A stretch of 63,231 nucleotides of DNA, counting the filler, from Folioceros fuciformis (taxonomy: Eukaryota): the NCBI GenBank assembly GCA_049999805.1. It is 7 parts of 7 records of this genome, joined end to end, with 100 filler letters (N's around TTAATTAATTAA, not from the genome) between each part and the next. Parts side by side here need not be neighbours in the genome. Positions count along the whole stretch, not along the records: positions 1 to 2,167 come from JBNGIO010002911.1; 6 more parts are not named here. The stretch is one strand, 5' to 3'. Under the pieces are notes generated by a model. That model saw only the letters and a program-made list of their open reading frames with translations, did no database searches and was not told the DNA's origin. A program made the position numbers and the translations under genes. Shown one piece after another: positions 1-59,077 of the stretch (within the stretch, counting starts at the first letter, position 1; each line of letters begins with the position of its first letter).

Positions 1-4
1 TCTA

Positions 5-853
5 ATGGATGCAGCCCTTATTGACCACAGGAGAACTAGCCGGGACCACCCGCAGGCTGATGGCTTAGCCGAGCGCATGGTCCAGACTATGAAGAAGGGG
101 CTTCGCAAGCTGTGTCTCCGAGAACCCAAAACAGATTGGGATCTCTTGCTTCCATATATTGCAATGGGTTACCGCATGAGCAAGCATGCTGCCCTTGCCC
201 ATTTTTCCCCTTACTTCCTCTTGTTTGGCAGAGAACCAATTCCACCTAGTTCTATAGCCAAACAAATGCTAGAAGTTGTCAAGCTGGATGATGCAGCTAC
301 ATAGGCACGTGTGATAGGTAATAGGGCAGCCTTGTTCAAACAGGCCATGCCCATGGCAATGGCTAACTTGCACATTGCCCAGCATAGGGATACCCTTCGT
401 TATGCACACACTAGGGGAGGCAGTTTTAGGCCCAAGCTCAGGAAGTTCCAGGTAGGAGACTTTGTTTACCTACAGAGGCAGACCTCAGATACCCTGGACA
501 CTTCCAGCAGTCGGCATGTGTTGCGGATTCAGGAGGTCAAGCCTAATGGCATCCTGGTATTGCAAGGCTCAGATGGTCGGATCACCACTGACCACACCAA
601 GAATTGCGCACCTTGCCACTTGCCCAATCTTGATCCTTCTATTGTCACAGCAGATTGGATTCCACCAACGGACTATCCTTGTCAGGTTTGTCAACGCACA
701 GATGATGCTGACCTCATGTTACTTTGTGATGGCTGCAATGGGGGTTTCCACCTTTTCTGCTTACAGCCACCACTTACCCATGTACCGGAGCAACTTTGGT
801 ATTGTCCCAAGTGCCAACCGGACACAGCAGGTGTGACCAGCCTAGGAGTGTAG
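5..853 (+). mobile_element. Ty3/Gypsy pol 3' end: integrase core and C-terminal module followed by a PHD finger (one in-frame TAG at 302-304)
   Basis: HPQADGLAERMVQTMK, WDLLLP and SPYFLLFGREP integrase motifs; FQVGDFVYL; then CQVC..LLCDGC..FHLFC..WYCPKC (C4HC3, about 680-814). ORFs 5-304 and 311-853 are in the same frame. Confidence 0.92.
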
Positions 854-895
854 CTCTTGTCGTGCTCTTTCATGCTTTCAGCCCGTCCATCAGCT

Positions 896-907
896 GGGGG
901 GGGGAGG
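896..907 (+). promoter_or_regulatory. Polypurine tract of the Gypsy-PHD element; 3' LTR probably starts at the TG near 910
   Basis: GGGGGGGGGAGG about 40 bp after the pol stop codon, followed by caTG. Confidence 0.6.
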
Positions 908-1367
908 CATGGACAATCTTTTTGTTCTCTTTTTCTGAGTGCACAAGACATTAGCCTTGCAGCTGATGGACTGAATTGAAGTGCTCACAACAGCTGATAC
1001 CGGGAGCACGACACCCTCTAAATTTTGTGCCATCTGAATGGCTAGAACTTTGACTGTAAGAATAGGAATGCATTCTTCTTATTCTGAATTTATAAATCAA
1101 TTTCAAATGCTTATTTTCATGATCTGACATGTGTCCTCGCGGACCTTTATCAGAATTGCTAAAAGGTCTGCTAGGAAATTTTTCAGGTTTGAAAAATCAA
1201 GCAAATAAATTCAAATAAACAATCAAAGTTTAGTTTCTTGAATGTGTCTTGTTTATATTTTCAAGAAATATTTTCTTGAAAAGATATGAACCAAAACACA
1301 TGTTTGTGCATATCTAAGTATGCACAATTTGATGTGCATTCTCTAGAATGCAACCAACACCTCTAAA

Positions 1368-1596
1368 GCTCTGATACCATCGTAAACTAAAGCATTTAGT
1401 GCAGGTTAATTAGATAATAAACTATTAAATAATTACATCTTGTCAAGAAACTTCAAGTACAATTACTATATATATTCAGGTAAGTCCAACTTAAACTAAT
1501 ATAAAAAGGTATGTCTATTCGCCAAAAGACGTAACCCTAATGAAACGATAAGCTGACTTAACATAATTAATTATATTTCTTAATATGCTGATAACA
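1368..1596 (-). mobile_element. LTR (about 1380-1596) plus tRNA-iMet PBS of a truncated LTR retrotransposon
   Basis: GCTCTGATACCA at 1368-1379 is the reverse complement of TGGTATCAGAGC; the adjacent AT-rich block ends in ATAACA. Confidence 0.65.
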
Positions 1597-1671
1597 CTCT
1601 TCACCTAACCACCCTTAGGTTTCATCATTATCACCCTCTTCTTTATTGGCATTTTCTCTAGTGTTGGGAAG

Positions 1672-2167
1672 ATGGCAGGGTGGGAACGGCTTTGGTCTTC
1701 GTCATATGGTGCGTTTTCGGCTAAAGTGTCCGAAGACCAACGCAGGGCTTTGGATCAGCCGATAACTGCTGATGAGGTGTTTTGGGCTCTGAAGGGGATG
1801 CCGAGGGATAAATCCCCAGGGCCTGATGGTATTCCCCCGAATTCTTGCTCTAGGGTTGGGAATTTATGTAGCTGCTATTCATGGAGGCGGTTAATATGTT
1901 TTGGGAGGAGGGTAGCATGGAGAGTTGGTTCAATATGGGGGTTATCTCCCGGCTTCCTAAGCAAGACGCCAGTTTATCTATCTCCAATTGGCGCCCGATT
2001 ACCTTGCTCACCACCACGTACAAGGTGATGGGTAAGGTACTGGCTAACCGAATTACTCCATTTCTTGATGATTGGATTGAGAAAGAACAGCGAGGGTTCA
2101 TTCAAAATAGGTGCATCCTGGACAACCTCCTTCTTCTGAGGGAAGCTAAGTACAACACCCAGGTACA
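1672..2167 (+). mobile_element. LINE (L1/Tx1-like) ORF2 reverse transcriptase N-terminal fragment, frameshifted, cut by contig end
   Basis: PITADEV..KSPGPDGIP, NWRPITLL..YKVMGKVLANRI, EQRGFIQNRCILDN. Confidence 0.88.
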
Positions 2168-2267
2168 NNNNNNNNNNNNNNNNNNNNNNNNNNNNNNNNN
2201 NNNNNNNNNNNTTAATTAATTAANNNNNNNNNNNNNNNNNNNNNNNNNNNNNNNNNNNNNNNNNNNN
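2168..2267. other. Artificial contig spacer; identical spacers at 9312-9411, 20697-20796, 38826-38925, 50199-50298 and 58978-59077
   Basis: 44 N + TTAATTAATTAA (stops in all six frames) + 44 N, repeated six times. Confidence 0.98.
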
Positions 2268-3102
2268 GCCTCAAAGGGACGCTCACATTCAAGATGCAGA
2301 CACTGGCAGCACCACCAGAGGAAGCAGGAGGGGAAAGCGCCAGCAGCAGCTCAAGCACAAGCACAAGGTGGCATCATCCGAGTGTGTGCACCCGAGTTCA
2401 ATCGATGGGCGGTATCGTGACATGCGGAAGAAGGATCTGCAAGGACTCGATCCCACCAAGCTCCCGCCACGGGAGCTTCCAAAAATGAGAGAAGGTCGCA
2501 GACGCAGTACTCCAGCACAGCCCGTAGAGGCGAGAGCGACTCGAGCTAGTCGGAAGCGGGCCCCATGGTCCAACGGGGACAGCCCCGATCCCTGCTGTCC
2601 TGGATTTGTCATAACTTCACTTCCCACGCTGTCTCTCTCAGTCTTTTTCTTTCTTCCCGTATCAGTCTTCCTCCTCCCTGAAATTCTCATGCCCTGCCTG
2701 CCTCCCCGTCACGGCCAGGAGCCCACACTGCCACCAGTCCCACAACCTGTGACCATCTCCTACTCGGCCCTCTCCACCCTCCACTTTACATAGAATATTC
2801 CTTCGCAGCGGACGCCATTCCCCCACTCCTTCCATGGCCTTATGATGGTCGGAATACAAATGATTGTCTCCTCAAATTCGTTCATACAAAATGCGTCTAT
2901 GATCATTTATTCAAAAGTAGGAACCCATATACCCACTCCTCACATGTTCTTTGTCACTTTCTTAGCTCCTTAAAAAACTTTCTTCATGCATCCATCCCAC
3001 TTCTTAGTAAATATACCACTGTCAGATCTTCCATCCTTGTAGGAATTCCTATATTGTCTCCTATAGAATTCCTCCTTTAGTGTATCGGTGTCATGTGTTA
3101 CA

Positions 3103-3272
3103 GTTCTTCTAGTATTCTTGTCTTTCTAGGAAGTCTTTCCAGTGACTACATTTAGTAAATGTAGTACACAGTACATATGCTTCTCGCAAGTTCTTCTAGT
3201 ATTCTTGTCCTTGTGGGAAGTCTTTCCAATGACTACATTTAGTAACCTTAGTACACAGTATATATGCTTCTC
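3103..3272. repeat. Diverged tandem duplication, 87-bp period, 2 copies
   Basis: gttcttctagtattcttgtc...tatgcttctc begins at 3103 and 3190. Confidence 0.85.
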
Positions 3273-4259
3273 TCCCTCAAAAGCAGGTAACAAGATTGAC
3301 CTCACGTGCACCCATCAGTACCCCAAATTCTCATGCCTCAAATACCTAGTACCAAGTACGTTGTATTATGGACACCGGCACCATATGATAGTTATGGACA
3401 CCGGCACCATATTCAACGATGTGAACCTTGCTCTAGACCTCGACCGTGCATGAGATCGAATAAACTACATTTTGTCTTGGATGCTAACAATAAGGACGTG
3501 TTATGGACTATATATATGGTACAATTTATATGCAGGTCTACGTCAAGTGTTCCTTGTACTCTCTCTATATGTACATGCGTCAACATTGATGTGTACATGC
3601 ATATATGTATGTAAGATAAGTAAATAATACATAGCTACCTAAATGTTCTGACAAGACGCATTATGTTAAAGGAGGCCAATCGAATGGGCTGCAGTCTAGA
3701 GGATATGCTTGTAGGAAATTGAATCTAGCCAAATATGCCATACATAGTAGTACATACTTATACACTTCATTTATAGATTTAGCATAATTTGCTATGCTTA
3801 ATCTCCATAGGATTAATGCTAGGTTATTGAGTTAACAAATAGTCGATTACTTTCTATTACTCAAAAACAACATAGAAAGTCCCATCTACTCAAAAGATTA
3901 GAGCACAACCCGAGTAGGGCCAGAGGACAAGCCAAGTAGGGCCAAAGGCTAGTAGGTATTAGCTCCTTCAAACATCAGCCTTAAAAGCTATTCCCAAAAT
4001 GTCATGATGTGGAATAACAAAAACTAACTCTAACACAAGTAGTCAAGTAGGTTTTCATGCTCAAAAGTTGTAAGTAATTTTAGTATAATAAAAAATTAAT
4101 GAAATTTATATTTATGAAAAAAAAATAGAATTTTTAGGCCACAAAGTGTGGCTTAGCTTTGTCCTTGGCCCAAGAATGTCACACCGCTATGAGTGGATCG
4201 CATTATATGTTGCAGCCTTTTGATGTATACTCTACCATTCCAACTAGGTTTTATGGCAT

Positions 4260-4815
4260 TTGATCTTGAAGTAGCCTAAGGCAATTGTAATGGCTATGTC
4301 TGTCGTACCATATGGTGATGATACGCGAGTCATGGGTTTAGGGTTCGGTATGACGTAGTTCGGTGGGTTCATATGTTTGTAAGGGCATGATGTTGCCCTT
4401 GCACTACACATAAACACGGATGGGAAGGTGTAGAACTTGTGCTAGCATCAAGATCTCAAGTTCTCCTATCCACTCCGCATCCCTCTTCATCCTTTTCATA
4501 GTTGGCAAAGCCCCCTTCGACTATATGCTTGTAAGTTTCTTCTTGTTTCTCCAACTCAGCAATAGCTCGTCTTCGAAGGACCTTTGCTATATGCCCTTGC
4601 ACCTCGTCATTCAATGTTGATTTTAAGCCTTGGAAGTTTGATGCTGCCACGGAGCGAAACAAGCACTTGCCATCCCCCTTAACACGTATGACTTCATACT
4701 CATCTTGATTGAGTATGTGAGTCCCTTTGGGTGCTGGTGGCGCACCTCGCGTTAGGGTATTGCCGACATACACCGCGGACTGATGCATAACGTTTTCAGG
4801 GCACGTTTCGGTTTA
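4260..4815 (-). pseudogene. OTU-family cysteine protease (deubiquitinase) domain, disabled
   Basis: VIRVKGDGKCLFRSVA Cys box; after a frameshift near 4495, AEWIGELEILMLAQVLHLPIRVYV and IITIWYDRHSHYNCL His box, with two in-frame stops. Confidence 0.85.
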
Positions 4816-4818
4816 CCC

Positions 4819-7020
4819 TGCTTAAGCACACATAATAGTAAATAATAAATATCGTAGTTAGTGTAGTTACGAATAGTTAAACTGCCCAAACCGAATAGCG
4901 GTTTATACTTTCCTATATGTGGCCATCAGCCATAATGATCGATGTTCTTTTCATGAGAATCATTCTCTCCGTTTCCACCAAATGGTATCAGAGCCATCTT
5001 GCTCCATGCCGCCATGTGCCATCCTCCTCTCCTCGCCTAGGCCCTCACAGCCTAGCGCCATGACCTTGCAGAATACTTATTGCGTTGAGCTCTAGCAATC
5101 TCTCATCCAACAAGATGCCTAGAAGACGTTCTTCCTCAATCTACATACCTGTCAGTAAGGCAACTCAGCACCACCAGTGTCTCTACAACAACTGCTCGGA
5201 GTCCTTGAACAAACCTCCTAGACGTAGACTACCTCTCTTCGAGCACAGACGTAACACTTGCGATCCTCATTCTTGCCCAGTAAAAACTTCAAGCTCACTC
5301 AATCGGTCAACCCTTGCACCAACTCAACCTGATGATGCCTCTCATGTGCTCTCTTCTTGTCTTCTTTCCACACACGATTGTCTTAGGATTCAACTCGCCT
5401 GTTTAGAACCTCAATTAGAAGCACTGCGTTTGGTAATCAGCAAGTTCTCAACACAACTGTACGTCTAGGTAGAGTAGAGTCTTACCTACAGAAGAGCCCC
5501 CTATAGATGCTATCTTTTGATTCCCTTAGACTTTTTCAGCACTACATAATGACGACCTCAACACCTTCTGTACCTTCCACAATTATCTCTAAAATAGAGT
5601 TATGTGACCGAGATCGCTTCAACGAAAGTGATTTCGAGGCATGGCAGGTGCGCATCACTGCGCTCTTAGAGGAGCATGATCTAATATCAGTTGTAGATAG
5701 AACCCTAAAGCAACCATCCATAACTCATGCCTCTTGCAACCCTTGACGAGATTGCAGCCTGGCATAAGAAAAACGAGAGAGCACGAAGCACTCTTATTTC
5801 TGCATTAGACAAGAGTATGCTAACCCACACACAAGGTCAGAGTACCTTAGCAAAAGTGTGGAGCGTTTTTAAGGACATGTTCCAAGCTCAAAGCTCCATG
5901 TCCCTGATCAACGCCACACATCAGATTTATTAATAAACGAAGGCGAAACCGTGGAGCAGCACATCCATAACTTCAGGTCTTTGCGGGCCAATCTTACAGC
6001 CAGTGGCACAACTGTTAGAGAGTTGCAAGCAGCCGTCGCACTACTCACTTCTCTTCCTCCCTCTTACAGAACTTTCGTCAGTTCTCAGAACTCTGTCTTA
6101 CGGCAGTCAATTCAGGCAGCGGTATCTGGAGGAGTACCAGCTTACACTCTTTTGGAAGTCGTGGGAGCCTTGTTGGAGGAAGAATCAAGTCGTGCGAGCA
6201 ATCCCAAGTTTAGTGCAGACCCAAGTCACGCTCTTTTCACATCATAGAGTAGAGGCGGAAGACGAGGCGGCCTCAGACCAAACCCTGCCACAAGGAGGCT
6301 TGTTCATCAATTTGGAACACAACCAATTTTCAGCGGAAATAAGCAGCAACAGCAGCAACAAAGAACTACAAAGGGACCCTGCAACTGGTGCAGGATCCCT
6401 GGGCACTTCGAGTATGAGTGCCGCAAGAAGGCGGCAAGTGAACCTCGTCGCAATCCTCCTCGACATGAAACACACTTGTCGCAGGCTCCCACGCCACCTA
6501 CTGCAAATTCAATTTTGGCGGTCTGCCTCACACTCACTAGAACTGACACCAGCAAGTGGTTTCTCGATTCCGGAGCAACAACTCACATTTGCAGCAGTCA
6601 CAACATGTTCACCTCATACCATGGCACACTCTCGGACCAACATGTCCTGCTCGGTGACGAAAACACCCTAGCTATCTAAGGATCGGGAGAAATTCAGCTC
6701 TGATTATCTAACGGGGAGCTACTCACCATTAATGGAGTCCTCCACATCCCGGCAATGACGAAGAACCTGCTCTCAGTTCGTAAACTCGCAACTGAGCACG
6801 ATCTCATCATCACTTTTCGAGGTAATCACTGCACAATCCACCACTCGTGAGATCAGAATCAAATTGCGCTTGCTCATGGTCTCCTGTATAACAATCTTTA
6901 CCTCCTGAACATCCACTCGACCTCATCCTCCCTTTTGGTGGACAGCTCCACCGCCACTTCTCCAAACCATCAGAATCATGTCCTTCTTTGGCATTGTCGT
7001 GCCGGTCACATGAGCCCCAC
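4819..7020 (+). mobile_element. Ty1/Copia 5' part: LTR (left edge approximate), PBS, gag, zinc knuckle, protease and GAG-pre-integrase; decayed and interrupted at about 7020
   Basis: PBS TGGTATCAGAGCC at 4983-4995; LLTSLPPSY; CNWCRIPGHFEYEC; WFLDSGATTHI; KNLLSV; LWHCRAGH. Confidence 0.88.
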
Positions 7021-9311
7021 TATCTACATACTTTTGCTAACCCCAACATATACAAAGACCCTGTGACAATCAAAGTACATAAAGACTTCTTCTATGAGAT
7101 TTGTAAGTATGCTAAGCTTGCCCAATTACTATCGTGCTTCAAGAAGTCTTGCCCTTCAACATCTGAACATAACCCTAGACATCTCTAAACACATATATAT
7201 TCTATATATTTAGCATACATTCATGTATATATGGGGTGGCCAGCCCCTATATAATATACGCGTATATTCTTGCAATAGTGCACACACAGATGCCTCCCCT
7301 TGGGTGCTTCCTCTCCGTCGTACACACCAAGGCTACTAGTCATCCTGCCACTCTTTGGTGGTTTACTACACACGAGATCGACGAAAGGAGTAGCTTTCGT
7401 CTACTCCTCCTCCGTCGATATGAGTACAGTGATCACACTTATAATTCATGAATGCCTCCCCTTGATGGCTTCCTCCCCGTCGTGCACACCGAGGTTATTG
7501 GTCATCCTAGCACTCTTTGGTGGTTTACTACACACGAGATCGACGAAAGCATTAGCTTTCCTCTACTCCTCCTCCCTCAATGTGAGTACAATGATCACAC
7601 TCATAATTCATGGGTGCCTCCCCTTGATGGCTTCCTCCCCGTCGTGCACACCAAGGCTACTGGTCATCCTACCACTCTTTGGTGGTTTACTACACACGAG
7701 ATCGACGAAAGGAGTAGCTTTCCTCTACTCCTCCTCCCTTGATGTGGCACCATCACTTCCCCCCCGTAATCTGCTGACCATCTTTCATTGGTAAAACAGA
7801 TTAACAAACCTTAACATCAAAATTCATACATGTTGACCGCACTGCTCCTCATAATGTATCAACTGCTACACACATTGGACAAAACCATTGCCCATCACGC
7901 ACTGCTTCTAGTGGAGTCTCTAAACAAAAGGTGTGCGACACGTTATTACACCTATTGCACAACAACATGTAATGATCACTTCCAGAATCTCCATAGCCTG
8001 TACAAGCAAATCCCCTTCTTGGTATGAAAGCTTGCACATCAATTGCTGAATTCAAGTAAGGCAAATGGCATGGCACACAATTTTTCATGTGTTCCAAACA
8101 AGTTGTGTCATCCTTTCCCTCCAACTCCAAAATCCCATTCAACTTCACACTTCTCACCCTTAATATTATCCTACTCACACTTGTATCAATTGTTGTCATT
8201 GTCTTCCTCTGCAAATATACATAATCTCCAACTTCAAACTTCTTCACCTTAGGCCTGAAATGCCCACTCCTTGTTTTTCTGTACTTCAACTCATCTCTAT
8301 GTTAAGCTATCAACAAGTAATCCATTGCCATAGGCATAATTCTCCTGAACAATTCTGCTTTGTGTGTAACTATCTTCAACCATTTATTAGGGTCATCCAG
8401 ATCCACTATAGTATTCACCTTGTCTTCTAACATCCTAGAAAACTATGGTCTACGTCCAAACAACATGTATGGTGAAAATTTTCCCAGCAATGCTTGCCTA
8501 CTCATCCTATAACCCATCGCAAGAATGGCAACATCCTATCCCACTCACTCTTGTCCATTACCAAACAATACTTCCTCAAAGCATTCTTACATGTCTGTAC
8601 CATTCTTTCTGCAAAACCATCAGCCTCTGGGTGATTCCTTGAAGTTACCCTATGATTAATAAAGATACTTATTTAAAAATTCATCAAAATCTCCCATAAA
8701 TTTAGTACCCTGATCTGTCAAAACTTCTGCTCAAGCCCAAAAACACTCAACACATGATTAAGAAATGCTTCTTTAATGTCATGTGACTTCTTCTCTCTCA
8801 AAGGTACCAAAACTATCCACTTAGAGAAATGTTCTATCATCACCAACAAATATGTGAATCTTCTATGCGTGAATGGCAACTCTCCAACCAAATCCTAACC
8901 AACTCTTCATGAATTTTTCTTATCAAACTTATCCTTTCTTCCGGACTAGACACCACCTTCATGTTTTCCTTAAATAAGAACTTACTATCAACCCACATGT
9001 AACTTCTACTTCGCTTTGTTACTTTATCATTTTCTTCACAGGTAACAGGTTCTTATTTCCACCTGTCATAATACATTCCATTGTATTATAATCTTCCCAA
9101 ATATCCATTGTTGTCAAAGAAGACACTAGTTCTACAAGATTCACCAAATATCCACTTGGTGTCCACTTAGACACCACCCAGTTACATTCAACATTCTCTT
9201 CTCTATCAAAATTATGTCTAGCAATTGTTGTATCCACCGAACTCCCTAGCAGATTCCTTGACATCACATTTGCATTAGCATGTTTTACTCCTGCTCTATG
9301 TTCTATAGAAA
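7021..9311 (-). mobile_element. Second Ty3/Gypsy element with PHD-tailed integrase: RNase H end, integrase, PHD (7870-8004), PPT (about 7757-7766) and 3' LTR (about 7021-7752)
   Basis: IEHRAGVKHANANVMSR; FEVGDYVYLQR..HMKNCVPCHLP..CTGY..MLLCNRC..HTFC..WFCPMC; GGGGGGGAAG PPT; interrupts the Copia coding sequence at 7020. Confidence 0.85.
7291..7745. repeat. 162-bp tandem repeat, about 2.8 copies, inside the presumed Gypsy LTR
   Basis: Units beginning tgcctcccctt at 7291, 7453 and 7615. Confidence 0.92.
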
Positions 9312-11272
9312 NNNNNNNNNNNNNNNNNNNNNNNNNNNNNNNNNNNNNNNNNNNNTTAATTAATTAANNNNNNNNNNNNNNNNNNNNNNNNNNNNNNNNN
9401 NNNNNNNNNNNCTCTGAAGTTCGCAGGCAAGTTGAGGTGTGCGGCCGATTCTTTTCATAGCCGCAAGCGCCAGTCTCTTTCCACAAAGAATGTCACGTCC
9501 AGGGCTGCCCCGAGATACTTTCAACCAGGGGAATCTTGATGCAATTCGAGCATGTAGATGCAGCCGCCGTCCATCCGCAACCGCAATAGCAGCAGAAACT
9601 GTCCCTTCTCCCTCGCCGGCACCAGGAGCAGCGGAGATGCAAGACCTAGCACGACGAAATTCGTCCTTAGTGGACTGTGATACAATTAATTTATTCTTCT
9701 TCTTTAAAAGGAAAACAGCTGTTTGACCCCACGATCCAGCGGCACTCAATCGGCCAGCTCCATTCCTTCCGATCTGCCGCCATACATATCAACCTTTTCC
9801 TTTGCGGCTGGCCACGTCTTGCACCCACATTGTGCTGTACGAAGATGCGGGGGCTGCGGCCTTGGATTAGTTTCGCATCTTGGCTGAATCCCCCCAAAAA
9901 ATACCAATGGCACACAAGACACTGCCACACCCCGCAAACTATATTGAACCCAGTAAACTTTACCTGTCAGGCTATCTACCGTTACATCCATCTTCTTAAG
10001 TAATTTATTAGGATAGAATTCTTCGTCCTTCTTTTTATGTCCCTACGATACGCACGCAACACTCTACTTCATTCTTCGTCCTTCCACGCAACACTCTACT
10101 TCGTTGTTGATCACTCCTAGTGTGTTATACCAATGATATGGAGTATCCATTAAGAAGGAATTTTCATCCTAGACTTATACTTAATAACTTGTACTCAATG
10201 ACTTATACTTAATAACTTGTACAAAGGCATCCATGTTCAAAGGTACTGGTCCCATCTAAGTGCGATTTGAGTACATGATGCTAAATCAAAGTGCCGATCT
10301 AAGCGCAGATCCTTAATCCCAAGTTAAGGATCTCATCTAAGTAGGATCTCAAAATGCCTAAAATTTGATGTAAGGAAGAATGAAGCCAAAGTGTTATCCA
10401 GATGCCGGACTTTCTATGGGACCTACACTCTGGTCGGCCGGTGTCTCGGGTGACGAATGCACCGGTGGAAAAGGCACAAAGGTACCAACGACCTGGCTGA
10501 CAATGGTTAGGCAGACGTTGGGTGACACAGACAGCGTAACGTTCCCTTTCCGCTTGACTCATCGGAATACAATATTGAGGGACGACGGACGGTTCGATAC
10601 ACGCAACTTGGCAATCCTGCGGTATTCGCATACACGCCACACCCGGGGGTCCGAGCGACGGGCCACAAGCGTGCACAATTCTTACAGCGCACACCATTCG
10701 CGACATTCCTCACCTTTCCATCTCTATCTGAATGGAGAGCGTGGATCACGAGGTTCCAGCCATTGCAGCTATGCACGTGGTCACGTATGTACTCCCCTTG
10801 CCCCTCTTCCCCTCCAAGGCTTCAGGGGCTCTGTTGAACAGTGTTGATTTAGTATACCTGTCCACAGTAGGGTCTCGGGTCACACTTTCTCCGTTATGAC
10901 TCAGGGTCACTTCTGTGGCATGTGGTGATGGAAAGGTAGAGTGAGAATCTCCCCTCTTGCTCTTTTTCCTCCAGCGCGTATGGCCATGATTTTCGATTCT
11001 TTGTAATTCTGCTATAGGGCTGCATCTCAATCGCAAGGGCAGTGTAATCTTTGGTACCTTCTAATGACTCCTAGCAGCCATCTCTTAGAGGTCTAAGTGT
11101 GCACTTGCTAACGCTTTCGACACCCTTTCCAGCACCTCATGGACGAAACCTTTTCTCACTCACAACCCTAATCTAAGATAAGATAAGGATTTGTGGAGGC
11201 GTATGGTGCTTACTGCACTGCCAAATGCAAGTACGTACGCAGGCTTTGAAGAACGCAGCTCCATCTGTTGGG

Positions 11273-15606: not shown

Positions 15607-18600
15607 TGTCTTAGGATAAGTAATCGTTAATTATTTATATGCTAAGTACATAGCATTTCATATTAACTTACACTTATAGAGTGAAGGGGCACCAAGCCCA
15701 ATTGATATATAATATACATTTTTGTCACATACATTAATTGAGTATTAGTCCACTTGCTGTGCTGCTAGGACTACATCACTACCGCCCTCACAACACAAAT
15801 GAAGACTCTTTTCATGGTATTAGAGCCCAATTGGGTTCTGATCTAACTACATCACAATGCGTTTCTTTGTTGTAGACTTGCAGATGCTAGTGGCGAAACC
15901 TTCAACTGGGCTCAAGACCTAGTAGTCATCATTCTTGATGGCTTCTTGTTTTTGTGGCTGGATGAAACGCCGCGTGTGTCATCGGCAGGCAACGGTTGGC
16001 AGCTCTCGGTTTTATAGAAGAAATCTGGAGAATCTTGGCACGGGCTGCCACTGCCTAAAAAATTATACAGATCTTAGAAATTTGTAGATCGCAAGCACCT
16101 GATTTGCGATCCTAGGTCCAGCGCGAGAATCCCCCTCAGTTGACGGCTCAGGTTTTGTATATCTGTCGCAAGATTTTGTATTTGCATGCTCACTTGCTTT
16201 ATTTCTTCCTTCTATCTGCTAAGGCAGGAAGGCAATTGCCGCTCATTTGCCGAACGATTGTGCTCAAGAAGATCTGTAGGCAAGGAATAAAAAATCTGCT
16301 CAGATAGAAAACAGCGTTCACAACGTTCTACTGGTCTGGTAGGGTTCAATCTCCTTGATGATGAAGAAAGCTCGTGCTGGCAAGTGCTAATTAAATTTTG
16401 ACTTTTTGTTGGTGCAGAGTTTCGGCCGACTGCAACAGATGTCTTGGTGGGCTGAAAAGAGTCAATGGCTTTTCTGTAGGCTTTGTTTCTGACGTGAGCC
16501 TGCCAGCATGCTCTGCGCCTCGGCATTTTCAAGAAAGTAACCCTTTAGTAGCCAATTCAATCGCAGCGGAGATTGATGCAATTTCTTTGTTGATTGCACA
16601 GACGATTCGCGACAGTCAGCTTCTGAAAAAGGTGGCGCCCTCTGGATATACAGATCTGTATCGGTGTGAAGGGGTTTGCGATTTTAGCTATAAATCGTCA
16701 TGTATGACGGCTCCTGCAAGTTCTACCCTGTAGTGTTTAATAAACACGGAACCCCTAGCGGTGAATAGGTCGGAAGGAGGAGCGGTTACTTACCCTGTCA
16801 CGAGCCGGCTAACTTTCCAACCAATAGTGGTGTTTGGAGAACGAAGGTTCCCCTTGCCTACTCAGAAAACGAGATAAGGAGTGACGGCCATCCTCAGCGA
16901 TGAGCACCACACCTTCTACATCCTCACCACCACCGCCTCCTCCCGACAAACCTGGCACCCAGAGACAGCGAACTCCTCCGCCACTTGTTTTCCCACCAAT
17001 TGCTTTCATGCAACCTGCATACACAGCCGATTTCAAGGAAAAGGATCGCTTTAATGGAACTAAATATGAGGTTTGGAGTGTTAGGATGTGTTCCGCTCTG
17101 GAGGAGAGGAATGTCTGGAATGTGGTATCCGGAGCTCTGCCTCCACCAGGCCTAATGGTGACTGATGCAGAAAAGGAACGATGGGGCAACGCAAACAATG
17201 TTGCCCGTGCCTTCTTGATCAGTGGTCTCCATGAAGTACTGGTTCTAGATGTTGCTTATATGATCAAGGCATTTGAGATATGGAATCAGCTCTCACAAAC
17301 AATGAGGTGAAGAACATTCTTCCCCTATTCGCGGAGATCTGTTCTCCTTGAGAATGAGGGAAGGCGAGAAGGCTGCAACCTTTGTTGGCAGGTTCCGTCA
17401 TCTTCGTTCTCAGCTGATTTCACTCGGTTCCACCATGAGTGAACTTGATGTTGTTGCTCAACTCTTAACTAGCTTGCCTGCGAGTTATCAGCCTTTCATT
17501 TCTAGCTATGGAGCTTCTCTCCATGATGTAGGAGCGGCTATAGCTGCAGAGCGACCAAGCACCATCAGTTTTACAAACGTAGTTGGCGCATTATTTCAAG
17601 AAGAGCAAAGCAGGGCTACTCATCACGGCCCGGGACGCACAAAGACAGACAAAGTTTTGTATGCATCAAAAGGGAAACCATAGAAAAATAAAAACCTTCC
17701 TGGCTTTGGATCTGCAAAAACAGGACAACCCAAGAGATCAGGTTCTTGCAACCGGTGTGGTGCTTAGGGTCACTAGGAAAGGGAATGCAAAAAGAAGAAA
17801 TCTGGTGAACCACGGAAAGCCGAGAAGCTCTTCAAGCAGGCTGTGAGGCACACCTTGTCACCAAGGATCGGCATACTTCGGCCAGCACTTCTAAGCACCC
17901 TGTGGTTATGACTATTTGTCTTTCCACTTCCACGAGTGACTCTGACAGCTGGTACCTCAATTTAAGAGCTACCTCACACATATGCAAGGACAAGGCTTTG
18001 ATGAGGCTTCACATCAGCTAGTGCAGCCAAGAGAGTGTTGTTAGGTGATGAGCTTACTCATACTGGCCTCATGATTCTTGGAACTGGCACCTGTTCGTTT
18101 CAACTTGCCGATAACAGTGTGCTCTCCCTCAACCATGTATTGTATGTACCTACAATGGCCAAGCATTTAATATCAGTAAGTCAGCTGATGCGTTTATGCC
18201 GTTTCGATCTATTGTTCACTTCCAATGGCTGTGCTCTCACCATTAAGGGCTCACCTACCAACGTAGTGGCAAAGGGGGTGCGCTTTAATGACTTGTACAA
18301 ACTCCATGTGGTTTGTTGCCGTCCACCTAGTTTGCACCTGGCAGAGGAATCCCAAGCTGTTCAAGCACAGCTGTGGCACGCCAGGCTTGGCCATGTCAAC
18401 CAACAGAAGCTGGTAAAGATGTCTTCTATGGACTGCTACCGTGAACCCTTGCTCAAATGCTTCAAGAACTCCCCATGTGCGCTGCATGTGTGGTTGCTAA
18501 GCAGAAGGAGTTGCCCTTCCCGACTGCTCCTGCTTATCGCACTATGAATGTTCTGGACCTGGTGCATGCCGACATTTCGGGCAAAATACATGTTTCCTCT

Positions 18601-20633
18601 CTGGGAGGAGCTTCTTATTACCTTACGCTTATCGATGACTATAGTCACTATTCCTGGACTTACACTATGAAGACAAAGTCTGATACTTTCCCTATATTCC
18701 AGGAATGGGTGCTATGATTCATCGGCAAATTGGTCGACTCTTGCGCTGCTTGCAATCCGACAATGGCACCGAGTTTGTCCATGCCTTTTTGAACAGTTCC
18801 TTACAACACAAGGGGTAATCAGACAGCTCATTGTTCCGTATACCCAGCAGCAAAACGGGGTAGCAGAACGACGTAATCAGACTCTCCTGGGCATGACCCG
18901 TAGCATGCTAGCTTGGTTAGGGTTGAGTAAATCTTACTGGGCGGAGGCCGTTGTCACTGCTACGTATATCCTTAATCGGCTGATTACCTCTGCAATAGTT
19001 GGCAAGACTCCGTATGAGTTCATTTGGGGACGCAAGCCGAGTATTCTGCATCTTCATGTTTTTGGTTCCCCTGCTTACGCCTATGTCCCTTCCGAGCTAC
19101 GCAAGAAGCTGCATGATCGAGCTAAACCTCTGGTTTTTGTTGGTTATGGCGAGGAAGCTAAAGCTTATAAGCTCTATGATCCTCCTTCTCACAGATCCAT
19201 CCTTGCTCGAAGTGTCACGTTCAAGGAACTGTGGCAGCCAGCTAAGCCTCATTTTTTGGATGCTGCTCCCTCCTCTTCGACTGACCCTCTTAGCTTCTAT
19301 GCCCTTGCAGAGCTTCCAGACGCCCTGGACTCGTATGTTCTCTCAGCTTATCCTCAGGATTCACCAGTTGCAGCTTTAGGGGGTGACCTTGATGAAACTG
19401 CCTCTGTCAAAGTTGCTGAAGTTGATTCTGTAGAAACGGCCCCCATCGAAGTGACTGAGGATGAAGTCACTGTTCGATGACAAGGCTGTTCAGTCTGCTG
19501 CTGAGGCACTTGAAGCAGTCCCTCCAGCATTAGTATCTGCTGAGCCTGAACGACGTTATCCGTCTAGACATAGACCTCCTAGGGATCAATGGCATGAAGT
19601 ACCTTATGTAGCATCTGAATGGCGAGCTCCACGAGTTTCTTCAGTCCGTCGACACTCTGTCGATTTTGGTATAGGCTATCCTCCAGAGCCTCGTACATAC
19701 TAAGAGGCGATTACAGGCAAAGACAAGGATCGGTGGATTCCTTCTATCAAAGATGAATATGACTCACTAATAAAAAATGAGACATGGGAGCTTAGTCCCT
19801 TACCCGCTGATAGGAAAGCCGTGAGCTGCAAGTGGGTGTTTAAGCACAAGCTTAATGCACAAGGCCAAATAGCTAGATTTAAATCTAGACTTGTGGCTCG
19901 TGGCTTTTCTTAGGTTGCGGGTGTCGATTATACAGAAACCTTTGGCTCTGTGGTTAAAAATCAGTCTATTAGGCTCATATTGGGACTTGCATTTGCTCGA
20001 GATTGGGACTTAGAGCAGATGGATGTATCTACAGCATTCTTGTACGGGGAGCTTGAAGAAGAAATATTTATGGAATATTTATGAAGGTTTTATTGACCCT
20101 GAACATCCCACATGGGCATGTAAGCTCACGTGGGCATGAAGAAGACTATCTACGGCCTAAAGCAGAGTGCACGTGAGTGGTACAAAACCATTCATGCCTA
20201 CCTAAAGTCTATCGGTTTTCTCCAGGATCCTGCAGATGCCAACATTTATGTTTATTTCAAGGATGGGAAAATGGTGTTGTTAGCTCTCTACGTTGATGAC
20301 GCAATTTTAGCATCAGACAATCGTGAGCTGTTAACATGGGTTAAGGAAATGCTCCACAGACAATATGATATGAAGGATATAGGAATACCTACTTTTGTGC
20401 TGGGAGTCCAGTTGTTGAGAGACAGACAAAACAAGATCCTGGTCCTGCATCAAACAAAGTATGTGAATGAAACCCTCCGACATTTTAATCTCGATAGTGC
20501 ACGACCTGTAAACACGCTTGGCATTGTTGGTTTCAAACTTACCTCTGAGCAATCACCCAAGGACAATGACGAGATTGAAGCTATGTCCTCTGTCCCCTAT
20601 CGCCACGCAGTAGGGTGTCTGAACTATATTGCT
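15607..20633 (+). mobile_element. Ty1/Copia element: 5' LTR 15607-15814, PBS, about 1-kb leader, gag (16900), protease, integrase and RT; decayed, broken at about 20633
   Basis: TG..CA LTR followed by TGGTATTAGAGCC; LWHARLGH; VHADI; QQNGVAERRN; KSRLVARGF; IYGLKQSAREW; LYVDD. Confidence 0.93.
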
Positions 20634-20796
20634 TGAGAAATGGTTTGTTGGAGGGTGGGAGGGATATCAAGAGAACAAGGAATGCAACAAGTTCGGNNNN
20701 NNNNNNNNNNNNNNNNNNNNNNNNNNNNNNNNNNNNNNNNTTAATTAATTAANNNNNNNNNNNNNNNNNNNNNNNNNNNNNNNNNNNNNNNNNNNN

Positions 20797-20997: not shown

Positions 20998-22740
20998 GAT
21001 AAGTGATCCCTATGGATTTCTAACACTCCCACTCAACACAACGACAATCTAACCTATAAGACTTACTCAATTAACCTTAACATCTTGCTAAACTTCATAT
21101 GCTTCTCTAAGGCTAGACCTTTGGTAAGAACATCAGCCAACATGTTCTATGTAGGACAGTAAGCTGATTCCATTTCTTTAGATTGGACTTTCTCCCTAAT
21201 GAAATGATGCTTAACTTCAATATGTTTTGTCCTTGCATGAAAGATAGCATTCTTGGCCTAATGAATGCAGCCTTGATTGTCATTGAAGATGAGGGTCGCA
21301 CCCTTCTGCTTGAATCCCATCTTTTCGAGCAATCTACGAAGCTATATGGTTTCCACTGTTGCAGCTGAGGTTGCCATGTACTCTGCTTCTATAGAGGATA
21401 GTGCTACTGTGGGTTGACGTCTATTACTCCACGAGATAGCTCCCCCGAATAGCATGAAGGCATATCCAGTGGTAGACTTGCGGGTATCAACGTCTCCTGC
21501 CCAATCTGAATCATAAAATCTGACAACCTGGGCTTCTTCTTTTTGGTTTTGGTAAGTCAATTTCCAGTGCTTTGTACCCTGTAAATACCTGAAAATTCTC
21601 TTGACTGCTTGATAATGTTGTTGTTGAGGATTGACCAAGAATTGGCTCACAACCCCCAGTGCCTCTACAATGTCTGGCCTTGTGCTTGTTGCCAAATAGG
21701 TGGGACAGCTAACAGCACGCTGTTAAAGATTTTTGTATACTTTTTCTGTCACGTTTTCGTTTATAGGATTTGCTTCCTTTGACAGTTTCTCCTTGAGGAT
21801 CATTGTAGTTGATCTTCTTAAGATTGGTTGCGTCTCTGGAATACTTAGTTTTGCATTGTTATCTGCAGCTGCAACAGTTCCTAGAGATGCATCCGCTTCT
21901 TCAATTGCAATGATGATAGGAGTGTCTCTCTTTCCCCCTCTATGTCAGAAAGTTGAGAAGGTGCAATAGGCAATGAGGTAAATTGTCCAAGGCTGTCATA
22001 AGCTTTAGAATCCCCGATGTGGTCAGTGCTATACGACAGGGAATCCTGCGAGATGAAGCGTGAGAAAGTGGTGTCTCCCATTCCACTAGTAGGTTGGGCG
22101 ACCTCATGAAAAACAACATCCCGGCTAAAAAGTATCTTCTTTGTGGTAGGATTGTATAATCGGTAACCTTTAACCTCATTCGAATAACCAAACATAAGGC
22201 ATTTGATGCCATGTGGATCCCACTTGGTCCGGTTGGCCTTCGGGACATGAGCATAAACCGTGGATCCAAAGATCCGTAGATGACTGATGTCGGGTTTTAT
22301 GCCAGACCATGCTTCCTCGGGAGTCATGTTGGGTACAACCTTTGTTGGAACTCTATTTAACATATAGGTTGATGTCATAATAGCCTCTCTCCAAAAACAG
22401 AGTGGCAAGACATTTTGATGGAGCATGCACTTAGCGCTTTCAACAAGGCTTCATATCTTGCGCTTTGCCACTCCATTTTGTTGAGGCATGTGCGGAATTG
22501 TGAGTTTCCGTTTGATGCCGTTCTCCTTGCAAAAACTCTGGAACGAAAAAGAGACATATTCCTCCCCATTGTCTGCAAGCGCTCATCACGTTCATTCTCA
22601 ACCAAAGCTTTCCACTCCTTCAATGTTTGGAACACATGAGATTTCTCCTTCAAGAGGTAAGTCCATACCTTCCGTGTGAAATCGTTGACAAAGATGAGAA
22701 TATAGCGGGCGCTACCCTAAGTAGGGTTTTTCGTTGGCCT

Positions 22741-37050: not shown

Positions 37051-38155
37051 AAGGACCTCAGCTCAGCCTAGCCCAGACCAGCCCAGCCCATCCCAGCACA
37101 GAAAGGGCAGGGGCAGAAAAGAGGGTCCTGCCAGCGCACAACGCGCTTGCATTGAATACTCCACAGCCTTCAATATTCCCTGCAACCTCCCCTTTCATTT
37201 TGTTTTCTATCTCCTACCAATCATTCCAATCTACTTCATCTCTCCTGCATAATTCGACACAGTCTTGCCTAATTTTCTGTCACGTAGTTCCACACTCGTC
37301 TTGTATTATTTGTATAACCAACCACAGTCCAGTCTAGATCTTTAGGTGGGATCTTCCACCTGCCTCTCGGCTCCACTCCTGGCCATGTTAGTCTCGCTGT
37401 GATAATGAAGTTGGTTCCATGGAATGATGCTGGACGCTGGCAGAGATCATGATCTCCCAGTCCATGCACGAAAGCAAGCAAAGAGGAAAGGAAAGTGAGA
37501 AGAGAAATCAGAGGAAGAGAAGGCTAATTTGTACCGGCAAGCCCCCATATTTACCACCAACCTTTTGTACAAACACACAAGCACCGTCGCGAGCGTAACG
37601 TATGCAGACGTGGAGAGTTGGGGAAAAAGTGGGGCGTGTTTGACGACTGTTTACTTGTCCATACGTGTCCCGGGTAGGATATTAGGCCTGTCTATTCCCA
37701 TGTCCTGAGGCCGTCAGTACGGGGCCGCTCAGAGGGGGAGGGAGAGAAGACGACACTAATCTTTGAGAAGCGGCCGCACCCCATCCCGCCGGCCCCTTTG
37801 TGTTGTTGTGTGCTTCCGAGCTGCTGCGTGCGCTGTGGAGCAAGTTATGGCGCTCGGCGCGCAGGGAGGCGTCTCGTAGCAGCGGGGAGTGTCGACGTAG
37901 AGGATACCAGCGGAAGGGCGGGTGCGTGTTACTGCTGCTATTGCTGCCGCCGCTGCCTCTTGTACTGCCGGGCAGACGCAGGCCCAGGTGCCACGCCCCG
38001 TCGTCAAGCTGGCGGCAGAGTGCGCGGAGTTCGTGGATGAAGCTGCCCGAAAGCGGCATCTTTGGAGGGGCGCAGAGCTTGTGGAGCACGGGACTGGCCG
38101 CAGCGGCAACTGCAACGCCATCGGGAAGGCGGATTCGTCCAGGAAGCAGCTCCAG

Positions 38156-38825
38156 ATGAGTAAGTTGGAGCAGTCCGGGGCCCTCCAGCCCGCGCAAGTG
38201 ACGCACAAACGGGAGAAGCTGCCGGGCTCCGGCATGTCTCCCTGCGCGGCCTGCAAGCTCCTGCGCCGCCGCTGTGCCAAGGAATGCGTCTTTGCCCCCT
38301 ACTTCCCACCCGACGAGCCCCAGAAGTTTGCCAACGTTCACAAGGTCTTCGGCGCCAGCAATGTGAACAAGATGCTTCAGGTATTTGGAAGGCTCCCCCC
38401 GGGCTGCTCCTTGACGTGCTCGTTGCTCCCCCTGCTCGCTTTCCTCTGTGCTGCCGCTCTAGCTCTCGGAGCGAGCTGGTTCAGCCGTCGTGGTGTGTAC
38501 AGCGCCTGGGCCGCTGCGGCCTGGGCTCCCGAAGTGCTGCGAATGCGGGAGAGTCCGTGAGAGCTGTCTTAGGCTTGTGGTTCTGCTGCAGCAGCTGTAC
38601 ACATTGGTGTTGTGGTTTGCAGGACCTGCCTGTGCACCAGAGGAGCGACGCGGTCGGGAGCATGGTGTACGAGGCGGATTCCCGAGTGCGAGATCCGGTC
38701 TACGGGTGCGTGGGCCTCATATCGGCGCTACAGCAGCAGGTGGCGAGCCTGCAGCAGCAGCTGGCGACGGCGCAGGCGGAAATTGTGTGTCTGCGGATGC
38801 ACCAGGCGGCAGTTGCGTCCAACGT
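38156..38825 (+). CDS. LBD4: Class I LOB-domain transcription factor (LBD3/LBD4-like); exons 38156-38380 and 38623->38825; start uncertain, 3' end cut by contig end
   Basis: CAACKLLRRRCAKEC (CX2CX6CX3C), FANVHKVFGASNV GAS block, RDPVYGCVG and leucine zipper LQQQVASLQQQL. Confidence 0.93.
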
Positions 38826-38925
38826 NNNNNNNNNNNNNNNNNNNNNNNNNNNNNNNNNNNNNNNNNNNNTTAATTAATTAANNNNNNNNNNNNNNNNNNN
38901 NNNNNNNNNNNNNNNNNNNNNNNNN

Positions 38926-41105: not shown

Positions 41106-41200
41106 CTTTGTCTTGCAAGGTTATTACTATTTTAATAGGTCAACTAAGGCTAGCAGACTATCACCAATCACTAATTTATCCTAGTATCTAACCTCCTATC

Positions 41201-41527
41201 AGTATTAATGGGTCAGCCCTACCACTAGTTGACCCTTCTACTACAGAGATCCTCCAACTATTAAGCTATTCGAAGGTAGTAAATACTGACTGATCTTCTT
41301 GGATTTTGTGGGCGCCGTCCTTTGAGGTTGTCTCCTTGGGTTTTTCTTCCCACTGATCCGCTATAAGTATTAATAAGTCAGCCCTGCTACTAGTTAACCC
41401 TTCTACCACAAGGATCCTCTAGGTATTAAACTATTCTAAGGTAGTAGATACTGATTGATCTTCTTAGATTTTGTGGGCATCGCCCTTGGAGGTTGCTTCC
41501 TTGGTCTTTTCCTCCCACTGACCTACT
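41201..41527. repeat. Diverged 165-bp tandem repeat, 2 copies, probably retroelement-internal
   Basis: agtattaat..gtcagccct..cccactga at 41201 and 41366. Confidence 0.8.
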
Positions 41528-41679
41528 GTCATATGACGTGTCATTCGGACAATCAAACTTGTCATTCGGATAGTTAACCACCTCCAACACTTCCTATAGC
41601 AAGTGCCTCCAGCCATCCCGTTTGATAATCCTTCAGCTCCTCAAACTGACAAGTCAGTAGGCTCATTAACCCTCAGTCA

Positions 41680-58977: not shown

Positions 58978-59077
58978 NNNNNNNNNNNNNNNNNNNNNNN
59001 NNNNNNNNNNNNNNNNNNNNNTTAATTAATTAANNNNNNNNNNNNNNNNNNNNNNNNNNNNNNNNNNNNNNNNNNNN

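Follow-up and report, generated by a model that had tools for sequence, protein, structure and literature searches.

What does a Gypsy-type integrase carry at its C-terminus when the chromodomain is missing, and how might such a tail influence where the element inserts? This question is raised by the DNA at positions 1–2167 of a 63,231-nucleotide (nt) stretch from Folioceros fuciformis (assembly GCA_049999805.1; the whole stretch that was analyzed, artificial spacers included, is hereafter called the window), in which the integrase reading frame of a Ty3/Gypsy-type retroelement runs directly into a PHD finger. In chromoviruses such as MAGGY, a small histone-tail reader, the chromodomain, likewise continues the frame of a Gypsy-type integrase at its end, and a tethering role has been proposed for it; Gao et al. 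(2008) is cited for the chromodomain targeting of integration in passages of two papers (PMC6673714; bioRxiv 10.1101/2021.11.30.470311). The window element differs in carrying a PHD finger instead of the chromodomain, and the mark concerned is, as judged from its residues, likely to be unmethylated H3K4 and not H3K9me.

The integrase frame of the window copy ends in a complete PHD finger

An integrase of the Ty3/Gypsy (Metaviridae) type consists of an H2C2 zinc domain, a DDE core, and a C-terminal domain, placed behind RT–RNase H (reverse transcriptase and RNase H). The window opens inside the integrase, of which it holds the last part of the core together with the C-terminal domain. The terminal part of the core, cut by the window edge, occupies positions 2–301 (+ strand), as indicated by a weak rve_3 match in Pfam (E = 0.013) and by alignment to P0006, a 929-residue protein with reverse transcriptase (RT), RNase H, integrase, and PHD domains. 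Over nt 2–814, the window translation was 75% identical to residues 654–924 of this protein. The core end contains a DGLAER stretch (about nt 59–76), whose glutamate (nt 71–73) we take to be the third catalytic residue. On translation, an in-frame TAG was found within the integrase at 302–304 (+ strand), in a column at which the relatives covering it share one conserved residue. Beyond this codon, the + strand reads without interruption in frame 2 from 305 to 850 (182 amino acids, aa), up to a TAG stop at 851–853.

The integrase C-terminal region (305–679, + strand) comprises a long helix (aa 2–37), a small β-barrel (strands within aa 53–103), and a linker, which carries a conserved NCAPCHLP motif with P103 in 99% and C104 in 100% of 216 aligned relatives. 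It is followed by the PHD finger (680–814, + strand), which was identified by Pfam, alignment, structural model, and fold match. The PF00628 profile matched aa 126–170 in full (model positions 1–47 of 47) and well above its gathering score (E = 4.2e-13; 49.5 bits against a cutoff of 24), and the zinc ligands C126, C129, C141, C144, H149, C152, C167, and C170 form a C4HC3 set with canonical spacing. The finger is acidic, with five D/E against two K/R from the first to the last Cys, and it contains the motifs LMLLCDGC, TDDAD, and GGFH, with TDDAD preceding the LMLLCD strand. A tail of 12 residues then leads to the stop codon, with which the polyprotein ends (tail and stop, 815–853, + strand). 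The first-pass annotation of this DNA had described an integrase frame running into a complete C4HC3 PHD finger and then a stop, together with an LLCDxC motif, a TDDAD acidic patch, and a GGFH sequence lacking the cage Trp; the Pfam match and the translation bear out each of these elements as well as the coordinates given there.

PHD-tailed integrases across the green lineage

The 182-aa frame was searched against 1.84 billion cluster representatives, which yielded 8224 matches at E ≤ 1e-3. Of these, 1237 reached E ≤ 1e-10 and 269 reached E ≤ 1e-30, the 269 clusters with integrase tail plus PHD being defined at 50% identity. Among the 150 best matches, 148 consisted of one continuous stretch from the integrase tail to the PHD finger, and the other two were multi-PHD proteins with four matched stretches. 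Longer proteins were sought with a word index, where 107 out of 426 candidates passed, and 97 of these carried PF00628 as read from the results table. Nine of the ten passing proteins without this flag were rescanned, and three of them showed a weak or cut PHD. At the level of predicted proteins, these matches show the PHD finger to be genuine, complete, and fused in frame to the integrase across hundreds of lineages.

The chromodomain profile PF00385 was found neither in the window protein (E ≤ 1) nor, according to the tables read, in the 107 long-protein matches or in 120 RT–RNase H neighbors. The window element thus lacks the chromodomain at the integrase C-terminus by which a chromovirus is recognized, and its PHD finger sits where chromoviruses bear that domain, as had been supposed from the sequence at first pass.

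The best matches, at 73–74% identity, came from the liverwort Calypogeia fissa, and further members of the clade were found in Sphagnum magellanicum and Klebsormidium nitens. The Klebsormidium proteins are P0028 and, among the RT–RNase H neighbors, P0364, P0410, and P0411. A cluster look-up added transcript-derived clade proteins from the chlorophyte Tetradesmus deserticola, and Marchantia polymorpha and Closterium were represented among the RT–RNase H neighbors. Going by these matches, members of the clade occur in liverworts, Sphagnum, Klebsormidium, Closterium, and chlorophytes.

An arrangement of RT, RNase H, integrase, and PHD, in this order, was shared by P0006, P0112, P0030, P0032, P0284, P0282, P0059, and P0293, and the order RT–RNase H–H2C2–rve–PHD was seen in P0006, P0284, and P0282, which are 74–75% identical to the window. 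Some of the long members also gave protease (PF13650, PF13975) and CCHC matches. Close relatives end 4–13 residues past the last Cys, with the exception of the run-on prediction P0009. In its long members, the green-lineage clade is predicted to encode a (gag/protease)–RT–RNase H–integrase polyprotein whose last domain, a PHD finger, is joined to the C-terminal domain of the integrase.

A host-type protein, P0107, was also matched, which has WAC, WSD, bromodomain, and PHD domains (BAZ1/ACF1-like) and is 55% identical to the element PHD over 38% of the query. A host protein of this kind may have donated the PHD finger.

Conservation of the PHD finger and selection on it

The alignment comprised 216 relatives that reach from query residue 30 or earlier to query residue 168 or later. 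In these, the eight zinc ligands were conserved at 99–100%, D142 at 94–96%, G147 at 92%, P161 at 98%, and W165 at 96%, and L153 lay within about 90–98%.

In a scan of metagenome contigs, at least 600 candidate stretches were obtained, of which at least 428 encoded a relative. Eighty loci with 60–74% identity were kept, and the 73 with full-length matches were used for codon comparison by the Nei–Gojobori method. In-frame stops were present in 59 of the 73 related loci, so most genomic copies are dead. All eight ligands were kept in 34 loci, and since the losses were mostly Cys to Tyr in stop-bearing copies, they are best ascribed to decay after insertion and not to neutrality in the active lineage.

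When the window was compared with the 73 loci, the PHD finger had a proportion of nonsynonymous differences (pN) of 0.219 and of synonymous differences (pS) of 0.926, giving a pN/pS of about 0.24, and the integrase tail had a similar ratio, with pN 0.209 and pS 0.874. Among the loci themselves, the ratio of nonsynonymous to synonymous divergence (dN/dS) of the PHD finger was 0.14–0.36 over five divergence bins and 0.21–0.36 when only the four bins with dS greater than 0.05 are counted; for the integrase tail, it was 0.22–1.15 across bins. These codon comparisons show the PHD finger as kept under purifying selection and at least as constrained as the integrase to which it is fused. Neither absence of the PHD finger from family members nor neutral evolution, the two outcomes that the first-pass annotation had set against its own proposal, was found, as the ligands are kept at 99–100% and pN/pS is about 0.24.

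Likeness to readers of the unmodified H3 tail

PHD fingers that read H3K4me3 have a cage Trp two residues before the zinc-binding His, and acidic residues before the first β-strand can pair with R2 and K4 of H3. When the PDB was searched by sequence, 91 distinct chains matched at E ≤ 0.01, with Lid/KDM5 PHD1 and JARID1D (1.3e-15), WSTF (1.8e-15), UHRF1, KDM5A, and BAZ2B at the top (these six at E from 1e-15 to 1e-13) and with KMT2C/D, CHD4, KDM5B, ORC1b, KAT6A/B, ATXR5, BAZ2A, PHF21A, AIRE, and DPF2/3 among the further matches. The PHD fingers of KDM5 PHD1, WSTF, BAZ2A/B, UHRF1, and ATXR5 are presumably readers of the unmodified H3 tail. The window PHD is 41–55% identical to fingers of this class (KDM5 PHD1, BAZ2A/B, WSTF, UHRF1, ATXR5, AIRE, and PHF21A; E from 1e-15 to 1e-9), and it shares with them the LLCDxC strand, the preceding acidic residues, and the lack of a cage Trp. 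Those fingers belong to host chromatin proteins, whereas the window finger terminates an integrase encoded by a transposon and has a predicted ligand.

An AlphaFold2 model was built from 55 aligned sequences, with a mean pLDDT (predicted local distance difference test score) of 86.5 and with values of 90–95 over the PHD finger (aa 121–170), 95–96 over the helix, and 92–95 over the later strands. When the model was compared with the PDB using Foldseek, the matches of the finger spanned 47–48 residues overall, and the ATXR5 PHD with H3 superposed at 0.9 Å over 48 residues (TM score 0.83). BAZ2A with an unmodified H3K4 peptide superposed at 1.2–1.3 Å, BAZ2B at 1.4–1.6 Å, the KDM5D PHD at 1.1 Å, and the UHRF1 PHD at 1.2 Å. 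The Tudor–PHD cassettes of UHRF1 and PHF1 were also matched as two-domain folds, with a root-mean-square deviation of 12–19 Å, so that for the model these matches show only that the pairing of a barrel with a PHD finger is familiar.

In the alignment, the column two before the His was G or A in 209 of the 216 relatives and aromatic in none. In 97%, an aromatic residue directly preceded the His (119 with W, 74 with Y, 17 with F), and at least two acidic residues were present in the eight positions before the β-strand in 159. The alignment and the model show that the window PHD is similar to fingers that read the unmodified N-terminus of H3 and, as predicted from its residues, is without the aromatic cage needed for H3K4me3. 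The guess made at first pass, that of an unmethylated-H3K4 reader of the KDM5 PHD1 or BAZ2 type, fits the PDB matches, the fold, and the missing cage aromatic.

Methyltransferase domains in the clade

The closest long relative of the window element is P0284 (1471 aa), which falls into one 90% cluster with P0006 (74–75% identical to the window). It has a C5-methyltransferase domain at its N-terminus, before the RT, which is the placement in the liverwort-like subfamily, and all 29 PDB matches of this domain were DNMT3A/B/C. In the more distant P0112, P0032, and P0059, the DNMT domain lies between RNase H and integrase, and the two positions of this DNMT3-like domain therefore suggest either two gains or one move. 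The PHD finger stays at the end of the integrase wherever the DNMT sits. By hand count, PF00145 was flagged in about 24 of the 120 RT–RNase H neighbors.

Two other RT–RNase H neighbors, P0424 and P0429, combine a Dam-type adenine methyltransferase (PF05869) with a terminal PHD finger. Through this combination, the clade is connected with the DAM-LTR elements described in a preprint (10.64898/2026.05.21.726589).

Proposed role of the PHD tail and alternative explanations

PHD-guided tethering of integration to H3K4-unmethylated chromatin is in our view the best reading of the integrase tail, with the balance of probability slightly in its favor. After reverse transcription, the PHD finger would tether the complex of integrase and cDNA to nucleosomes without H3K4 methylation, and insertions would tend to avoid active promoters and to favor unmarked or silent chromatin. 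The logic would be that of chromodomain–H3K9me tethering in chromoviruses, with another reader and another mark.

Several points weigh against tethering. The acidic patch is only moderately conserved, with no or one acidic residue in 57 of the 216 relatives, and of the PDB relatives labeled here as unmodified-H3 readers, only some have entry titles that say so. The 216 relatives are gene predictions and biased to intact frames, the dN/dS pairs are not independent of each other, and pS against the window is saturated. Since 171 of the 216 predicted relatives continue for more than 60 residues beyond the PHD finger, the finger is not terminal in much of the clade, and an unrecognized module beyond it may matter there. 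Both PHD-tailed copies of the window are dead and lie on short pieces beside transposon fragments, so that they are anecdotal and shaped by post-insertion selection, and the 5′ part of the element at positions 1–1013, including any DNMT, lies outside the window.

The ADD domain of DNMT3 reads unmethylated H3K4, and the PHD finger could serve the DNMT3-like enzyme of the element as ADD serves DNMT3, directing or licensing methylation. We consider this main rival unlikely on the whole. It draws on the N-terminal DNMT of P0284 with its exclusively DNMT3A/B/C matches, on the PF00145 flags among the RT–RNase H neighbors, and on the published KnitGypsy-Dnmt3 element (PMC5890265). However, the PHD finger is always on the integrase end, far from the DNMT in either of its positions, and because protease domains (PF13650, PF13975) occur in long members, DNMT and PHD finger are probably separated onto different products by cleavage. 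No DNMT match in Pfam was obtained for many of the PHD-bearing members of about 1000–1150 aa, some of them perhaps cut at the N-terminus, and the corresponding region of the window element would lie upstream of the first base of the window. Another conceivable function of a C-terminal cross-brace finger is the binding of nucleic acid or of another protein instead of a histone, as in piggyBac, and this we regard as distinctly improbable. The piggyBac transposase also ends a DDE-type enzyme with a cross-brace zinc finger, the cysteine-rich domain at its C-terminus, which binds a specific DNA sequence, and the same paper lists the PHD fingers of BRPF2, BRPF1 (PHD2), and PHF6 as binding DNA and not histones (PMC5861402). 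A cis DNA target would be at hand in the window element, because a conserved G-tract and the start of a repeat adjoin the coding end (see below). Whereas the piggyBac domain is a C5HC2 finger that binds transposon-end DNA, the window finger is a canonical C4HC3 finger, is acidic (five D/E against two K/R), and has H3-tail readers, several of them solved with H3 peptides, as its nearest solved relatives instead of DNA-binding fingers.

Many PHD fingers read H3K4me3, and a finger of this kind would steer insertion to active promoters. One PDB neighbor, 3sow, is the UHRF1 PHD solved with an H3K4me3 peptide; yet none of the 216 relatives has an aromatic residue two before the zinc-binding His, and the classical cage readers (ING, BPTF, TAF3, and PHF8) were absent among the top 60 PDB sequence matches, which makes this explanation very improbable. 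Least credible of all, and to our minds nearly negligible, is a captured host exon or annotation chimera that is functionless and decaying. The dead state of the window copy, the stops in 59 of the 73 loci, the complete ligand sets in only 34 of them, and the 55% identity of the BAZ1/ACF1-like host protein P0107 over the PHD would agree with it, but the ligand losses are mostly Cys to Tyr in stop-bearing copies and indicate post-insertion decay. Chance or host-exon capture was rejected on three counts, namely the same fusion site in 269 clusters, the conservation of the ligands at 99–100%, and a pN/pS of about 0.24 that is like that of the integrase tail.

H3K4me0-directed tethering may also be part of a larger set of functions. 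The clade would then carry an epigenetic kit, in which the integrase PHD finger that reads H3K4me0 is combined with the element's own DNMT3-like or, in some members, Dam-like methyltransferase, and which directs both insertion and methylation to H3K4-unmethylated chromatin in the manner of ADD–DNMT3. Such a clade would be far older and wider than a Klebsormidium-specific event. We put this extension forward tentatively, as a possibility that we think more doubtful than probable.

The 3′ end of the element and its sister copies

A G/purine tract, polypurine-tract-like and composed of nine G (896–904) followed by AGG, lies at 896–907 (+ strand), 43 nt 3′ of the stop codon. In 65 of the 73 related loci, a run of at least five G was present 40–49 nt past the stop, an offset that the window shares, and the tract is therefore a conserved feature. 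The polypurine tract that had been noted after the stop at first pass corresponds to this nine-G run. A terminal noncoding segment follows at 908–1013 (+ strand), which ends in CACGACA and was delimited by contig ends and by its likeness to a repeat of a related locus, as described below.

Of the related loci, 16 had enough flanking sequence to look for repeats. Two repeat pairs (A1/A2 and B1/B2) were present in four of them, the B pair only in three, and neither in nine. Split direct repeats in the arrangement A1–internal–B1–A2–B2 are present in L049 and also in L003, L051, and L079, although these elements encode a DDE integrase. In L049, A1 (1547–1839) is followed by the internal part, the G-tract, B1 (10579–10742), A2 (10745–11037), and B2 (11038–11201), with a span of about 9.65 kb and with the G-tract directly 5′ of B1. 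Taken jointly, A and B begin with TG and end with CA like a single long terminal repeat (LTR). The flanks read at L049 (1547–11201) do not match as a target-site duplication would, and no LTR pairs were found in L034 and L032.

Repeat B of L049 ends in ...GTCACGACA, and the window segment 908–1013 ends alike (...CACGACA). Direct repeats were sought within 840–1700 and 854–6000 of the window, and none was found. To compare the window copy with others of its kind in the source organism, contigs of four public sequencing runs were aligned to window positions 1–1600 at 88% likeness or more. From two DNA runs, 75 and 76 contigs aligned to this range. The summed contig depth, which is no copy number, was several hundred over 1–1026, dropped to about 10–15 past 1026, and was about 10–50 over most of the rest (10–190 by bin), and the high depths over 1–1026 indicate that the window element belongs to a multicopy family. 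Position 1013 is the point at which other copies continue differently, with five contig ends in run X1, eight in X2 (plus one at 1014), and one in X3. On these grounds, the window copy probably ends at 1013 with a single B-type segment, which we infer to be the 3′ end of the insertion.

A 9,251-nt contig of run X3 spans positions 1–1013 with four differences and extends 294 nt past 1013 and about 7.9 kb upstream of the first base of the window. This contig is evidence of a longer copy and not of transcription, as X3 is only guessed to be an RNA run. At position 303, every covering contig differed from the window (six in X1, four in X2, one in X3), so the stop codon at 302–304 is private to the window copy. 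Among the variant places listed for the aligned range, two (682 and 700) lie within the PHD finger, and both are synonymous by codon reading. Positions 1–1013 of the window are best explained as the 3′-terminal part of a Ty3/Gypsy-type retroelement copy that is dead and bears one private nonsense codon.

In each of two DNA runs, one contig skips 47 nt at 866–914, including the G-tract, and has three other letters instead. The tract is therefore absent from some copies of the family.

The second PHD-tailed copy and other features of the window

A search of the window with the frame (tblastn) revealed a second PHD-tailed copy on another assembly piece (7849–9311, − strand), which is diverged and broken. 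It matched at 8523–7870 with 47% identity (query residues 53–271) and at 8669–8520 with 58% identity (query residues 4–53), with a frame break near 8520. Its PHD finger lies at 7870–8004 and is followed by a stop at 7849–7851, and the second zinc Cys is replaced by Tyr. Upstream, the copy extends to the end of the piece, where it is cut at 9311. Since this copy is much diverged and still ends in a PHD finger, the window holds two families of one clade, both of them PHD-tailed. A comparison of the regions downstream of the two copies showed no similarity.

Three tandem units of 162 nt, 80–88% alike, lie at 7290–7775, just downstream of the second copy on the − strand. They may be part of its terminal noncoding region.

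The window is interrupted by six spacers of the form N44-TTAATTAATTAA-N44 (2168–2267, 9312–9411, 20697–20796, 38826–38925, 50199–50298, and 58978–59077), which are artificial joiners with stops in six frames. It therefore consists of seven or more separate assembly pieces joined in a row, and features that lie on different ones cannot be taken as neighbors. The first PHD-tailed integrase frame is physically contiguous with positions 1–2167 only. On this piece, a LINE-type (long interspersed nuclear element) reverse-transcriptase fragment was recognized by eye at 1609–2167 (+ strand), separated from the PHD-tailed element by about 600 nt of DNA without an assigned feature.

On other pieces, Copia-type elements with gag, protease, integrase, and RT frames were recognized by eye at 18000–20640, 21880–22450, 38930–44600, 51400–55400, and 61400–62610. 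An open frame with the LOB/AS2-type motif CAACKLLRRRCAKECVFAPYFPPDEPQKFANVHKVFGASNVNKML lies at about 37900–38560 (+ strand) inside a stretch of 56% G+C, and we take it to be a host gene of the LOB/AS2 family. The Copia elements and the LOB-type frame point to a streptophyte plant as the host, but they are on other pieces and therefore say nothing about the surroundings of the PHD-tailed insertion. An Rfam scan of the window gave no match at the gathering score.

Relation to published elements

Retrotransposons with a captured chromatin reader are already known, and the window element adds another member to them. REM1 of Chlamydomonas is reportedly a PHD-bearing Gypsy-type LTR retrotransposon. 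Gypsy-7a_cRei, also of Chlamydomonas, is like the window element a green-lineage Gypsy-type LTR element that encodes a PHD finger, and the legend to Figure 6 of PMC9940879 lists its domains as GAG, PROT, RT, RH, PHD, and INT. If the legend gives their order, the PHD finger stands before the integrase there and after the integrase C-terminal domain in the window element. According to PMC8557442, PHD is among the accessory domains common in the transposons of C. reinhardtii, and chromo and PHD domains are said in a survey of 172 eukaryote genomes to co-occur often with reverse transcriptases and integrases (bioRxiv 10.1101/2021.11.30.470311). In the paper on Ginger elements, the only PHD reported belongs to a DNA transposon whose integrase is Gypsy-like (PMC2836005), and PMC6338049 names the chromodomain and a DnaQ-like exonuclease as accessory domains of LTR elements without listing PHD.

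The closest published counterpart of the methyltransferase-bearing relatives is KnitGypsy-Dnmt3 of Klebsormidium nitens, whose acquisition is held to be confined to the lineage of K. nitens (de Mendoza et al. 2018, PMC5890265); with this element, part of the clade is already in print. The relatives found here include Klebsormidium proteins, the closest long relative likewise encodes a DNMT3-like domain, and related loci pair DIRS-like split repeats with Gypsy domains, as the Figure 4 legend of that paper reports for KnitGypsy-Dnmt3. In contrast to that element, the relatives of the window copy come from Calypogeia, Sphagnum, Marchantia, Closterium, and Tetradesmus, and the DNMT, which in KnitGypsy-Dnmt3 lies between RNase H and integrase, stands before the RT in P0284, the window itself showing no DNMT region. 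The main text of the KnitGypsy-Dnmt3 paper does not mention PHD, though its figures or supplements may show the domain. A 2026 preprint names "streptophytes (Gypsy-DNMT3)" (10.64898/2026.05.21.726589).

In the full-text literature, a PHD finger at the C-terminus of a Gypsy integrase was found neither described nor functionally tested, a result that extends to main texts but not to figures, supplements, or papers behind subscription. PHD domains in a lycophyte Gypsy lineage, which the first-pass annotation had mentioned, were not confirmed, as the main text of the REXdb paper (PMC6317226; its additional files not covered) does not contain the term. The novelty implied there was overstated all the same, as the fusion is present in hundreds of database clusters and PHD-bearing retrotransposons, including a Chlamydomonas Gypsy element, are in print.

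Significance

The window element itself is ordinary, a dead and truncated copy, and it is the clade-level pattern that deserves study. The DNMT3-like and Dam-like domains in the clade broaden what has been published on transposons equipped with methylation enzymes. If the proposed role is true, the integrase C-terminal domain together with the PHD finger would be a compact natural module for H3K4me0 tethering. In the portions of the literature found, the chromodomain is the sole reader for which guided targeting has been shown in LTR retrotransposons. The PHD finger would then be a second, independent reader at the same site, present across liverworts, mosses, charophytes, and chlorophytes, and it would mean that transposons have repeatedly turned to histone readers for selecting where they insert.

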